Positions 32,039 to 58,021 of a stretch of 64,000 nt of DNA are shown piece by piece (within the stretch, counting starts at the first letter, position 1; each line of letters begins with the position of its first letter). The notes under the pieces are model-generated. The model did not search any database. It was not told the DNA's origin and worked only from the letters and a program-made list of their open reading frames with translations. The position numbers and the translations under genes are program-made. The stretch is from the IMG/VR virus record IMGVR_UViG_3300046169_000069; one strand, 5' to 3'. This stretch comes from a virus.

Positions 32039-32102
32039 ATTATACCAAATCTGGCGGGATTGTCAACACTTTTTTAAAACTTTTTTATGTTAATTTTTCA
32101 CA
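32039..32102 (-). promoter_or_regulatory. Early promoter TTGACA-N16-TATAAT with A-tract UP element and TGTG-N9-CATA box
   Basis: -10 at 32039-44, -35 at 32061-66, box at 32086-32102. Confidence 0.9.
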
Positions 32103-32321
32103 ATAAATGGGTTGTATTTTTCGTTCAACAATTCGCATTGCACAGGGATCGTTTGCGAAAACACTCCAAGTGCCGTCGTACTGACTGGCGATAGTGATCT
32201 CAAATTCTTCTCCGTAGATGTCGTACGCTTCAAACTTAAATTCGTAGAAGATGTTAGGCTCTCCCAACACTTCGGTCAACCTTTCATAGGACACGTCAAT
32301 GTATCCTTGTAAACAACTCAT
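32085..32321 (-). CDS. Hypothetical protein
   Basis: LQGYIDVSYERLTEVLGEP; GAGG RBS. Confidence 0.6.
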   Translation of the reverse strand: MSCLQGYIDVSYERLTEVLGEPNIFYEFKFEAYDIYGEEFEITIASQYDGTWSVFANDPCAMRIVERKIQPIYCEKLT

Positions 32322-32341
32322 GATAACCTCTTATCAAAGGA

Positions 32342-32453
32342 GTGAGAAGGGAAGAAGCAGTGAACCGTAGTTCCTATTCTGACACCAGATGTCTCGGAGA
32401 GACAAACAGTGGGCCGAAGCCCCTAGTCGAGAGACCAGATCTCCCCAACTCAC
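32342..32453 (-). ncRNA. Candidate structured small RNA or leader RNA with two covarying repeat units
   Basis: Closing stem GUGAG-UU-GGGG/UCCC-UU-CUCAC; two units of AUCUGGU hairpin plus UNCG hairpin; starts about 7 nt after a TATAAT. Confidence 0.7.
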
Positions 32454-32460
32454 AATACAC

Positions 32461-32488
32461 ATTATACTCTTTTTTCAAATAAAGTCAA
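32461..32488 (-). promoter_or_regulatory. Sigma70-type promoter TTGACT-N16-TATAAT driving the structured RNA
   Basis: Minus strand TTGACTttatttgaaaaaagagTATAAT. Confidence 0.85.
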
Positions 32489-32501
32489 GACCTTTTTTAG
32501 A

Positions 32502-33089
32502 TTATTTTGGAATAAAGGGTGCGTTTTTTACTGCTTTTAACCACGACTCAGGATCTTTCGGTTTCGACGGGGTCACTCGCAGACCCTGTTCCTTGAAGTT
32601 CGCCTTCAGGATCGTGGCGGTCTCACGACCAAGGAACCTCGACACCAGTTTCAGTAGGGTCTGTCGAAAGGTCACATGGTGGTGGCTGTGTCCTGCACTA
32701 TGCGCGAGTTCGTGTAGGACGATGTACTTGTTGAAGTCGAACGCGGGCGAGATCTCAATCCACGATCCGTGTGATCTACCCATGTATGCCGCTCGACTTC
32801 CCATATTGCGTGACTGGACGACTCGGACCTTGCCGTGGTAACGAGACAACTTCTCCCACGTCTTGGATGCGGTCACTTGTTTTACAAACTTCTCCACATC
32901 TTTAAACTCATTGAGTGGACCGATCAACTCAGGGTGTTCGTTTTCGAGTTTCCATTCTGCGTTGTAGGTCTTGGTCTTCTCACTGTCGCGTTTTGGTAGA
33001 ACCGTCTTACGACGGTAGTAGTCAGAATACTTATGGGCCTGAGAGGTAGTCAGTCCCGCGTTCAATGCTCTGCGATATGCAGTTCGCAT
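32502..33089 (-). CDS. Putative metallohydrolase (HExxH...H)
   Basis: KTYNAEW, IVLHELAHSAGHSHHHVTFRQTLLKLV. Confidence 0.7.
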   Translation of the reverse strand: MRTAYRRALNAGLTTSQAHKYSDYYRRKTVLPKRDSEKTKTYNAEWKLENEHPELIGPLNEFKDVEKFVKQVTASKTWEKLSRYHGKVRVVQSRNMGSRAAYMGRSHGSWIEISPAFDFNKYIVLHELAHSAGHSHHHVTFRQTLLKLVSRFLGRETATILKANFKEQGLRVTPSKPKDPESWLKAVKNAPFIPK

Positions 33090-33353
33090 TACTTCTTTTT
33101 CCTTACCCGCTTCTTGGCAGGAGCCTTCTTCTTGGGTGCTGTCCATTTCTTTGCGAGGAACTCCTCAACTGATAACCCACACTCACGAAGGGTCTTGTGG
33201 AATCTTTTTACATCGGTCATTTCCCATGTATTATCAATAAACGATCCGAAGTGGTTTAAAACTTTTTCTCCAAGCTTGTGCGTTCTCTTCAGTCTCTTTG
33301 TCGAAGATATAACGCACCTTCTTGGTGAAATTTAACTTAATGATCTTAGACAT
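33089..33353 (-). CDS. Hypothetical protein with basic tail (indel near 33270)
   Basis: MSKIIKLNF...; shifted end KKWTAPKKKAPAKKRVRKKK; AGGAG RBS. Confidence 0.5.
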
Positions 33354-34084: not shown

Positions 34085-34101
34085 ATTGATCTCCTGTAAA
34101 T

Positions 34102-34164
34102 AAAAAAAATAGGGGAGCAGTCCACATACCTGTCAGTCGGAATCTTCGCAAGACCGACTCCCCT
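34102..34164 (-). terminator. Terminator-like stem with a branched 40-nt insert
   Basis: AGGGGAG...CUCCCCU-AUUUUUUUU enclosing additional hairpins. Confidence 0.65.
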
Positions 34165-34169
34165 CTAAA

Positions 34170-34634
34170 CTATTGACTAACGAATCCGGTACCGTCACAC
34201 ATGTAACAGTCTTCATCGCCATAGTCATCGTATCCATAACCTGAACACTCTTGACACGTCTCATCAAGATCTTCATCCGAATAGTCGAGCATGTCTTCGG
34301 TGTTCTCCATCGTCATCAACTGAGGGTTGAAGGTCACCATCTTGGTGGTCATCTCAACGATGCGGTCGATGGCAACATGGAAAAAGTCGTCCTCATACTT
34401 ACCTTCATAGAGTCGACCCGTCGTGTAGGGTAGGACGTAATCGAATAACTCCTTGTCGATCGCACCCTTCTCACGTAGGAACTTCAGGGCACCGGAAGTG
34501 TTGTTACCCATCCCGTTGTTGTAGAAGTCATAACGCAGACGACCGGCGGCACGAACCATCTCACCAGCGACAGTAGCGGCGTTACCTTCACGAGGAACCA
34601 ACTCCTCCCAGATTCGTTCAAATGTAGCACTCAT
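34170..34634 (-). CDS. Hypothetical protein with C-terminal CxxCxGxG zinc finger
   Basis: LVPREG.A.TVAGEMVRAAGRLRYDFYNNG; CQECSGYG...CYMCDGTG. Confidence 0.7.
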   Translation of the reverse strand: MSATFERIWEELVPREGNAATVAGEMVRAAGRLRYDFYNNGMGNNTSGALKFLREKGAIDKELFDYVLPYTTGRLYEGKYEDDFFHVAIDRIVEMTTKMVTFNPQLMTMENTEDMLDYSDEDLDETCQECSGYGYDDYGDEDCYMCDGTGFVSQ

Positions 34635-56026: not shown

Positions 56027-58021
56027 TTAACCCTCGCAGGCCCGACATTCGTCGCCACCGTCACTTGGTTCGTACTCCACTTCACCCTTTAGATGCATCA
56101 TAAGATCTTCATAACCACCTATGTACTTGCCTTCCAGATAAATTTGAGGAACTGTCTCGACCTTTCTTCCTGTAACCTCTGCGGCAGACTTCTTTATCTC
56201 CTCAAGGTCAACGTAGTCATAATCTATGCCGCGTAGCGACAGTTCCTCTGCGGCCATTTTACAATACGGACAATCTTTTTTTCCGTAAAGTATGGTACGG
56301 TTGTCGTCTTGTAACGCAACCCGTTCCACTTTGTCTGATACCGTCTCCGCACGAGACTTTGCCTCTGTGCGCAAATAGTACAGACCTTTCAATCCTTTCC
56401 TCCAGGCCGTGAAATGCACCTTGTTAACATAACGTTTCGGTGTTCCTGACGGGAAGAAAAGATTAACCGACTGACCCTGACAGATGTACTGTTGTCTGTC
56501 AGCCGCGTGTGTCACTACCCAGTTTTGATCCAGTTCTTGTGCAGTCTTAAAGACCGCCTTCTCACCTTCATTTAAGAACGGTAAGTGTTGAACCGATCCC
56601 TTGCGGGTAATGATACTAGACCACGTAGATTCGTTGTCCTGACCCTTCTCTTTGAGTAGGGCCGTTAGATACGAGTTCTTCACCAAAAACGAACCTGCAC
56701 GAGTTCTATGCGTATAAGCACATGCCTTCAATGGTTCAATTGATGGTGACGTGGATAAGATGACTCCCGACGACGCGTTAGGTGCTATTGCTAGTAGATG
56801 GGCATTGCGCATCCCTGAACCTAAACCGTCTGAGTATTCACCCCGCTCTTTCGCAAGGAGTCTTGATTCTTCTTTTGCTTCGTGATTGATATGTTCAAAC
56901 ACGACATTATTTATTTCTCGGGCTTTGTCAGATTCCCAAGCAACAAAGTGTTTCTGTAGGAGTGAATGGAAACCCATTGCTCCAAGTCCAATGCTTCTTT
57001 CACGTGCCGCCGAATAACGGGCGCGGGAAATACTATCTGGCGCATGACCGATGAAGTATTCGAGAACGTTATCCAGCATACGAATAAGATCCCGCACGAT
57101 ATTAGTGTCTTTCCACTCATCATAGTATTCCAAGTTTAGTGATGACAAACAACATACCGCAGTCCTGTCTGGACCTGTCGGCAAGTGAATCTCGTTACAT
57201 AGGTTTGACCCGTGAATCTTTAGTCCTTTCTCCTTTAGTGGCATTGGGAGCGCACGATTCGCAGTGTCAATAAAATTCAAGTACGGTTCTCCCGTACGGA
57301 AACGTACCTCAAGGATTCGTTCCCATAATTTACGCGCATTGACAGAATCTTTCACAATACCATCTTTTGGGTCACGTAAGTCAAAATCTGTATTGTTGAT
57401 CACCGCAGCCATAAACTCATCGGTGATGTTGATCGCATTGTGTATGTTCAGCGCCTTACGTTGTACGTCGCCTGTAGGAATGCGAATGTTTAGAAATTCC
57501 ATGATGTCTGGATGATGCACATCCAGATACGCCGCATAAGACCCCTTACGTGTCTTGCCTTGGCGATACGCGATCATGTCTGCATCTACTGTGTGTAGAA
57601 ACGGAATCGGGCCAGGCGCGATGTCAGAGACCGTACGCACGTCTCCCCAGTGTCCACCGACACCACCGCCCATTACGGATAACCAACGCAACTCCGAAGA
57701 GTGTTCAATCAGTCCTTCAAGTGTGTCTGGGACATAGGTAAGAAAACAAGAGATGGGAAGTCCGCGAGTGTCCGCGCCTTCTTTGGGTGCGTTTGACAGA
57801 ACCGGAGACGCAAACATAAACCATTTCTTTGAGGCATATTCATAAAGCCTCTGCGCTAGATACGGATCTACTTGATCTTGATATGTTGACCACGCTTCTG
57901 CAGCTCTTGCGTACGCATCTTGGGGCGACTCTTCACCCTCAATCATATAGAAATCTTTTAACATACCTATCGCATAGTCTGTTAACAGATCATCGCGATC
58001 GTAATTCACATCTACTTTCAT
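56027..58021 (-). CDS. nrdA: Ribonucleotide reductase class Ia alpha subunit with inserted glutaredoxin domain
   Basis: ASPVLSN, PISCF, GSNLCNEI, VCCLSSLN, AIAPNASS, GLYYLR; then CPYC...TVPQIY..GKYIGGY; ends CRACEG. Confidence 0.97.
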   Translation of the reverse strand: MKVDVNYDRDDLLTDYAIGMLKDFYMIEGEESPQDAYARAAEAWSTYQDQVDPYLAQRLYEYASKKWFMFASPVLSNAPKEGADTRGLPISCFLTYVPDTLEGLIEHSSELRWLSVMGGGVGGHWGDVRTVSDIAPGPIPFLHTVDADMIAYRQGKTRKGSYAAYLDVHHPDIMEFLNIRIPTGDVQRKALNIHNAINITDEFMAAVINNTDFDLRDPKDGIVKDSVNARKLWERILEVRFRTGEPYLNFIDTANRALPMPLKEKGLKIHGSNLCNEIHLPTGPDRTAVCCLSSLNLEYYDEWKDTNIVRDLIRMLDNVLEYFIGHAPDSISRARYSAARERSIGLGAMGFHSLLQKHFVAWESDKAREINNVVFEHINHEAKEESRLLAKERGEYSDGLGSGMRNAHLLAIAPNASSGVILSTSPSIEPLKACAYTHRTRAGSFLVKNSYLTALLKEKGQDNESTWSSIITRKGSVQHLPFLNEGEKAVFKTAQELDQNWVVTHAADRQQYICQGQSVNLFFPSGTPKRYVNKVHFTAWRKGLKGLYYLRTEAKSRAETVSDKVERVALQDDNRTILYGKKDCPYCKMAAEELSLRGIDYDYVDLEEIKKSAAEVTGRKVETVPQIYLEGKYIGGYEDLMMHLKGEVEYEPSDGGDECRACEG

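Follow-up and report, generated by a model that had tools for sequence, protein, structure and literature searches.

The putL and putR elements of HK022 are two simple stem-loops, found in lambdoid phages, with a proven action on RNA polymerase. For T4-type phages, PeSL (promoter-early stem-loop) cassettes were reportedly described by Arbiol et al. in 2010. Marine T4-like phages such as Melnitz carry glutamine riboswitches behind early promoters (PMC9004378), and the IMG/VR-wide screen of Fremin, Bhatt and Kyrpides from 2023 (PMC10690425) holds 10,006 unnamed candidate structured RNAs. Here we analysed a 64,000-nt stretch of viral DNA (IMG/VR record IMGVR_UViG_3300046169_000069; hereafter the window), the minus strand of which carries an RNA element that is the first thing transcribed behind an early promoter. 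We put the probability that this element is a genuine structured RNA in a leader and belongs to a new family at roughly 90%.

Tandem riboswitch aptamers (glycine; glnA/glutamine) have in common with the element the location in a 5' leader and a three-way junction architecture with an invariant junction and variable arms. The occurrence of single and tandem modules, in marine T4-like phages and behind early promoters, is likewise shared (PMC9004378). The element differs from these riboswitches in its conserved nucleotides and by having no Rfam match, and its modules share an inter-module helix where the riboswitches have two complete aptamers; moreover, it was not found in the bacterial genomes searched and shows no consistent gene association. 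The glutamine riboswitch families RF01739 and RF01704 gave no match to it at E ≤ 10. ToxI arrays and phage pseudo-ToxI resemble the element as promoter-driven tandem RNA repeats, the copy number of which varies among related phages. However, the units of the element have diverged and pair with each other, unlike near-identical repeats, and the element is not followed by a terminator and a ToxN-like gene, the downstream proteins being without PADLOC or Pfam match. HK022 putL/putR and the element are both cis-placed structured phage RNAs just past early promoters, both with two-part folds; the element differs from put by its three-way junctions and by its single copy per genome. PeSL cassettes and the element are both conserved early-promoter cassettes with an A-rich upstream block, located between small, variable and shuffled early genes. 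The PeSL stem-loop, however, is a terminator upstream of its promoter, whereas the element is a branched RNA downstream of it, and another hairpin of the window (34095-34175) is a better PeSL counterpart. Finally, the candidates of PMC10690425 share with the element the IMG/VR source and the character of covarying intergenic motifs just upstream of phage genes, and the element may be among them; no description of the motif was found in the literature covered. The element appears to represent a new family of structured phage leader RNA with an unusual strand-swapped tandem architecture.

Promoter, position and map of the element

The promoter TTGACT-N16-TATAAT (32488-32461, minus strand) matches the consensus at 11 of 12 positions. 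It is present as described in an earlier annotation made from the window sequence (the first-pass annotation), and the two unit sequences quoted there also agree with the window letter by letter. P1, the helix that closes the element, begins 14 nt past the -10 hexamer in the window (13-14 nt in homologues), which places the start of the transcript probably ~7 nt before P1. The promoters of the homologues carry a conserved A-rich upstream block, and the sequence AAAATAATCTAAAAAAG recurs there. The features of the window at this locus are as follows (SD, Shine-Dalgarno; MFE, minimum free energy).

32483-32488, minus strand: -35 hexamer TTGACT of an early sigma-70-type promoter; a near-consensus promoter is equally spaced in all homologues
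32461-32466, minus strand: -10 hexamer TATAAT, 16 nt from the -35 hexamer
32349-32446, minus strand: the element of ~100 nt; the ATG of the downstream gene lies 26 nt further on, with a pyrimidine-rich spacer between
32449-32453 with 32342-32346, minus strand: accessory outer helix GUGAG/CUCAC, present in the MFE fold
32440-32446, minus strand: 5' strand of P1, GGGGAGA, SD-like; pairs with 32349-32355
32434-32439, minus strand: junction strand 1, UCUGGU; UCUGG has a column entropy of 0 (n = 23)
32426-32433, minus strand: 5' strand of P2, CUCUCGAC; long-range helix with 32377-32383
32407-32425, minus strand: hairpin A, UAG-GGGC-UUCG-GCCC-A-CUG; two covarying pairs, 98% of cells paired
32390-32404, minus strand: central hairpin P3, UGUCUC-UCC-GAGACA; four covarying pairs, also found by RNAalifold and in the window MFE
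32384-32389, minus strand: junction strand 2, UCUGGU; CUGG invariant
32377-32383, minus strand: 3' strand of P2, GUCAGAA; partner of 32426-32433
32358-32376, minus strand: hairpin B, UAG-GAAC-UACG-GUUC-A-CUG; two covarying pairs, 99% of cells paired
32349-32355, minus strand: 3' strand of P1, UCUUCCC, anti-SD-like, followed by the pyrimidine-rich spacer
32327-32330 and 32319-32321, minus strand: SD GAGG and ATG, start of the downstream gene
32085-32321, minus strand: 78-aa early gene P0001, the commonest gene behind the two-unit form

Both helices previously proposed for the ends of the RNA, GUGAG/CUCAC and GGGG/UCCC, can pair in the window. The outer one, GUGAG/CUCAC, is however retained only in the closest relatives. 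The same applies to the hairpin UGAUAA-GAGG-UUAUCA suggested for the ribosome-binding site, which is already altered in the otherwise identical copy of G001, the nearest genome examined (160 kb, 93% complete). A discrete species of 112 nt, as had also been suggested, is not delimited by any terminator in the window, where the element is continuous with the SD and ATG of the next gene. A 42-aa open reading frame spanning the RNA (32334-32462, minus strand), with its ATG inside the -10 box, was rejected as a gene because its frame is disrupted in homologues by loop-length differences not divisible by 3 and, in L029, by an in-frame TAG.

Covariation and topology of the fold

Homologous loci were gathered via the downstream protein, with two independent DNA patterns in IMG/VR and with one pattern in metagenome contigs, and a covariance model was used to sort true members from chance pattern matches. 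The resulting set comprises 23 distinct two-unit sequences, 7 distinct one-unit forms and one three-unit arrangement (L046/L009), the third unit of which is itself one of the 7 one-unit forms. Pattern matches in L042 and L069-L073 were discarded as chance by inspection, and 24 of the 49 metagenome pattern matches were without a covariance-model match.

The window sequence folds with z = -4.4, and 0 of 200 shuffles folded equally well; the word GASAYCTGGTSTC occurs twice in the 64 kb, both times within the element. Five helices, P1, hairpins A and B, P3 and P2, are backed by covariation, in a model fold of 34 nested pairs. When 13 distinct sequences were aligned with MAFFT, which is blind to structure, 95.7% of the cells paired and 13 pairs changed on both sides, and 0 of 500 shuffles were as good. 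Fitting of the 23 distinct sequences to the model gave 96% paired cells with 49 compensatory cells, and pairing fell to 33-54% when the helix partners were slid (n = 23). An early phage transcript thus begins, in this stretch, with a structured RNA domain that is conserved, and the earlier proposal of a promoter-proximal RNA selected for pairing is borne out by the 23 distinct homologues that keep the fold with compensatory changes. G.U pairs are found in P1 and P2 and invariant U.G pairs at the hairpin bases. Since these would be A.C mismatches on the other strand, we attribute the selection to the RNA of the minus strand.

P1 is paired in 99% of the cells and is present in the single-sequence MFE of all homologues (23/23). 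Its compensatory changes are from A-U to G-C in L030 and L087 and, in the one-unit forms, from G-C to A-U and to U.G. Between the two units, the sequence changes but stays self-complementary, with the variants GUCUC/GAGAC, GUCC/GGAC, GAUCC/GGAUC, GCCC/GGGC and GGUCC/GGACC, and was therefore assigned to the central hairpin P3. The 8 nt before UAGG in unit 1 covary with their counterpart in unit 2, as in CUCAAC/GUUGAG, CCCGAC/GUCGGG, CCUGAU/AUCAGG and CCCAAC/GUUGGG. They can therefore be attributed to a long-range helix, P2, in which four pairs show compensatory changes among the homologues. The window is the weakest case for this helix, with 3+3 bp and a bulged C, and P2 appears in the single-sequence MFE of 9 of the 23 sequences, the window not being one of them. 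RNAalifold recovers P1, P3 and hairpins A and B. Instead of P2 it gives a local CUGGU/ACUAG hairpin, the bases of which never covary and the N15-A22 pair of which is broken in several sequences; this hairpin was rejected because it also excludes the four covarying pairs of P2.

The first-pass annotation had correctly recognised two related modules as the constituents of the element. Its UAG-GRRC-loop-GYYC-A-CUG hairpins have two covarying pairs each across the homologues, and the UCUGG, UAG, bulged A and CUG that it pointed out are invariant. Conservation of UNCG tetraloops, which it had also noted, does not extend to the homologues, in which the loops include UUCG, UACG, CUUCGG, UUU, ACCAA and UCA. 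The principal disagreement concerns the architecture, for which two independent units had been proposed, side by side inside an outer helix and each with its own hairpin and closure. Every pair of that arrangement can form in the window sequence, GAGAU/GUCUC is invariant and hence possible as a transient alternative, and unit 1 of the window can fold autonomously by closing on UCUCUCC. However, the helices unique to this arrangement show no compensatory change, whereas the competing P2 and P3 have four covarying pairs each. Pairing is 75-80%, with zero compensatory changes, for the local GACAU-CUG-GUGUC hairpin and for the GAC/GUC pairs that close unit 1, the GAGAU-CUG-GUCUC hairpin is unvarying in the two-unit forms and missing from most one-unit forms, and P3 variants such as GAUC/GAUC or GCCC/GGGC break the proposed pairs. 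On the same alignment, the side-by-side arrangement has 4 compensatory pairs, all of them in hairpins A and B, which are common to both models. With covariation showing units that are interlocked via P2 with P3 between them, we consider the side-by-side arrangement extremely unlikely.

The basic module is a three-way junction of ~55 nt. It consists, in order, of helix X (GGGGAGA/UCUCCCC), UCUGGN, a short helix Y, the UAG-stem-loop-A-CUG hairpin, CUU and the second strand of helix X. In the two-unit element, helix X corresponds to P1 in module 1 and to P3 in module 2, and helix Y corresponds to P2, entered from opposite strands. The topology that emerges from the alignments is that of two pseudo-symmetric three-way junctions joined by a shared P2, and the window is accordingly modelled as two fused modules, one strand of each forming helix Y. 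In the one-unit forms, Y is a local hairpin of 3-4 bp, GUC..GAC, or GCGA..UCGC in L013/L139, and X shows further compensatory changes, which confirm the module. Unit 1 of the window alone (32395-32448, minus strand) scored 44 bits with the one-unit covariance model. The invariant UGG, UAG and CUG triplets have more than one possible pairing, between which covariation cannot discriminate, and a possible UGG/CUG pairing that would extend helix X involves invariant bases, hence gives no covariation signal either way.

In an alternative fold, incompatible with P1 and P3, GGGGAGA pairs with UCUCUCC (32396-32402, the 5' strand of P3 plus its loop). An equivalent partner for GGGGAGA is available in L043, L044 and L128, in their CU-repeat P3 loops. 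Since unit 1 can thereby close on the internal UCUCUCC as an autonomous one-unit form, the RNA may be bistable. As to conservation, the mean column entropy was 0.34 bit for paired columns and 0.79 bit for hairpin loops, and it was lowest for the junction and bulge columns, with a mean of 0.20 bit and 14 of 18 columns invariant. This junction conservation may partly be due to shallow divergence, because all homologues come from one phage lineage.

Distribution and genomic context

The source of the window is an uncultured T4-like myovirus, and the earlier view of the locus as part of a phage's early region, of marine or estuarine origin, is supported. Its nearest GenBank record, Phage C48C1, which is filed under Kyanoviridae, has ~82% DNA identity over the region. 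The gp32 and the large subunit of ribonucleotide reductase (RNR) of the phage are 91-95% identical to those of C48C1 and 50-65% identical to those of cyanomyoviruses and the OM43 phage Melnitz, with C48C1 first and Melnitz next among the closest relatives of the RNR. The RNR large subunit (56027-58021, minus strand) has a glutaredoxin domain fused at its C-terminus. Both psbA/psbD (PF00124) and hli (PF00504) are absent from G001, a 93% complete genome, and the host of the phage may therefore be a heterotroph and not a cyanobacterium. The phage itself is, however, filed near Kyanoviridae.

All homologues were located in uncultured T4-like phage contigs, either viral or metagenomic, with a single copy of the element per genome. 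In 50,697 GenBank phage records, blastn returned only a chance 32-nt match to the element, and the one-unit model R2 gave only noise against C48C1, Melnitz-1, S-M1, P-SSM5 and S-SCSM1 (E 0.5-0.9). The strict pattern had 4 matches in 185,579 species genomes, all of which were rejected by the model, diverged host copies being able to escape the pattern. Rfam 15 gave 0 matches in the whole window at the gathering threshold. At E ≤ 10 over 32200-32600, two chance rows appeared (PVT1_5 and RgsA), both outside the fold, and the homologous loci matched tRNA-Pro only. ARAGORN detected no tRNA or tmRNA gene in the window or, in 11 loci, beside the element. Two statements of the first-pass annotation, that the RNA is not a tRNA and that its family was not recognised, are in line with these searches. 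The succession GGGG...UCUGG...UCGAC presumably resembles tmRNA 5' ends; the hairpin loops of the element are variable tetraloops and not T-loops. A tmRNA was also considered for the sequence after the element in L067, which instead proved to be a recurrent terminator-like hairpin. A tRNA-Pro(UGG) lies directly upstream of the element's promoter in one context group (L035:10855-10931 and L044:10500-10576).

The genes downstream of the element are varied and include the P0001 family, the 182-aa P0003 family (phrog_37844), the 'ENYGAHDWDG' family and others, all of them small early genes with no functional annotation. P0001 matched no Pfam, PHROG or PADLOC family, and its predicted structure (pLDDT 85) had no significant PDB match. 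For P0003, no Pfam or PADLOC family was found and the PHROG match was limited to an unnamed phrog; its predicted structure is poor in the C-terminal half. An Atlas search with the downstream proteins returned viral hypotheticals only. In L017-L027 the P0001 gene has a promoter of the same kind but lacks the element in front. Since this gene occurs both with and without it, we regard the element as an accessory part of an early region in which genes are shuffled. Neither the element nor P0001 is present in C48C1, the closest complete genome. The usual upstream neighbour of the element, P0002 (214 aa; 32502-33146, minus strand), carries a HELAH...H motif and has a weak WLM/SprT-like metalloprotease match (E = 0.02, below the cut-off). 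Near-consensus sigma-70 promoters, matching at 11-12 of 12 positions, are dense on the minus strand of the window between 28000 and 38000 (ends at 32039, 30281, 36346, 35957 and 35207), and the early region looks cassette-built with shuffled small open reading frames.

In most homologues the element lies 15-28 nt upstream of the SD and ATG. Of 29 homologues, 26 have a U-rich run (at least 5 U in 8 nt) close behind P1, at a distance of 0-4 nt. The window is among the exceptions: its count there is 4 U in 8 nt, and it has the extra GUGAG/CUCAC helix instead. A simple terminator scanner made no call at P1, because the helix encloses ~85 nt of branched structure. In L067, L085 and L099, the element is ~100 nt away from the SD, with a terminator-like hairpin between them.

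A second conserved RNA-like motif, without Rfam match, was observed in the window at 34095-34175 (minus strand) and also at L001:2235-2300 and L067:6195-6262 and in L099, L085, L086, L036, L046, L058 and L139. Its GC-rich outer stem GGGGAG/CUCCCC covaries to GUGGGG/CCCCAC, GACGGGG/CCCCGUC and GGGGAA/GAUCCCC; the other parts are an inner stem, 29 nt of invariant apical sequence (UUKCGAARAUUCCGACUGAYAGGUAWGUG) and 5-8 U in a row. In most cases the motif comes just past a stop codon, often with an early promoter behind it, an arrangement that is PeSL-like. In three contigs it separates the three-way-junction element from the gene that follows.

Possible functions of the leader

At somewhat less than even odds, we tentatively favour a leader that senses a factor and regulates in cis. 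The reason is the anti-SD-like 3' strand of P1, with the U-run and the SD coming after it. Riboswitches in general have a conserved aptamer in the 5' UTR, whose helices covary and whose core is invariant, and an aptamer-like part of this kind is found here. The invariant junction bases would provide one putative binding site per module for a small molecule or a protein, and occupancy of these sites would stabilise P1. The 3' strand of P1, UCUYCCC, could act like an anti-SD sequence ahead of the U-rich run, the SD and the ATG. As it abuts these signals, formation of P1 would gate either termination or translation initiation into the first early gene. The element would then regulate in cis in a riboswitch-like way, by means of one, two or three sensor modules.

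Several observations are consistent with such a regulator: the fixed 5'-leader position between a near-consensus promoter and the SD and ATG, a sensor-like conservation in which the junction is more invariant than the arms or loops, the resemblance of P1 to an SD/anti-SD duplex, and the alternative partners of the P1 5' strand, GAGA/UCUC in the two-unit forms or the internal UCUCUCC. In addition, 1, 2 and 3 modules occur, as in tandem riboswitches. On the other hand, the varied downstream genes give no gene-association clue. The element is dispensable, as seen from P0001 behind the same promoter kind in L017-L027 and from its absence in C48C1, and in L067, L085 and L099 the intervening terminator-like hairpin and the distance to the SD speak against this reading. 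Riboswitch classes usually occur in hosts, and the strict pattern did not find the element in the 185,579 species genomes. The homologues come from a single phage lineage, so that shallow divergence may account for part of the conservation of the junction. Finally, the computed accessibility of the SD barely shifted when the 5' strand of P1 was blocked, a calculation that is not decisive.

The same terminator-like features can be read differently, as those of a free, early, trans-acting sRNA that ends at the U-run after P1 or is cut from the mRNA and serves as a protein decoy, sponge or anti-defence mimic. Its two pseudo-symmetric junctions would bind a protein of host or phage origin; a dimeric one would match the twofold pseudo-symmetry. 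The GC-rich P1 with the U-rich run of 26/29 homologues does resemble an intrinsic terminator with a branched interior, and the separate terminator-like hairpin of L067, L085 and L099 precedes any gene. The accessory behaviour of the element, which is single-copy and patchy and is present or absent before the same gene, and the variation of module number from 1 to 3 also fit such an RNA. However, most copies sit exactly at the position of a 5' UTR, the window, with its 4 U in 8 nt, has no terminator before the ATG 26 nt on, and the neighbouring genes yield no PADLOC or Pfam clue. Branched terminators are also unusual. We rate a free sRNA, which the first-pass annotation had raised beside a regulatory leader as a possible protein sponge, antitoxin or tandem aptamer, as rather unlikely. 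Less likely still is a 5'-terminal stabiliser or insulator against RNase E or RNase J, possibly self-cleaving to a 5'-OH like the engineered RiboJ, which would make expression independent of the downstream gene. The fixed site at the transcript start, the portable promoter cassette and the many unrelated genes behind it agree with this function, and the small size, a three-way junction whose core is invariant and whose arms vary, and the occurrence in multiples recall small self-cleaving ribozymes. No Rfam ribozyme family was matched, though, the ~7-10 unpaired nt ahead of P1 would give poor protection of the 5' end, and an invariant junction is superfluous for a plain stabiliser.

Lastly, the nascent RNA could bind its own RNA polymerase in a put-like manner and cause processive antitermination, with read-through of the terminator-like hairpins of the early region. 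The location directly behind an early promoter, as for the put elements of HK022, agrees with this possibility, as does the conserved hairpin with U-run that follows the element in three contexts and the same family of which is found between early genes (34095-34175). Yet there is one copy per genome despite the many promoters of the early region, in phage C48C1 and the L017-L027 phages the same terminator-like hairpins or genes are present although the element is missing, and put, with its two simple stem-loops, is built differently. Antitermination of this kind seems to us very improbable.

In summary, an invariant junction with covarying arms that occurs in single and tandem forms is the pattern by which most riboswitch and small-ribozyme classes were first noticed. 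The module could, although we regard this as doubtful, be a new riboswitch-class aptamer or the core of a new class of small self-cleaving ribozymes, found only in one uncultured marine T4-like lineage and reading a host metabolite or second messenger within the first seconds of infection; the tandem form would then join two three-way junctions of one RNA into a strand-swapped dimer, which would be without precedent. The interlocked two-module fold is a tidy natural example of RNA domain duplication and fusion, and the one-unit form of 57 nt is small enough for direct biochemistry and structural work. The element seems to occur in phages alone, on the RNA that is made first after infection. 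If the sensing function is true, it would show how a lytic phage gauges its host's condition before it commits to its early programme.
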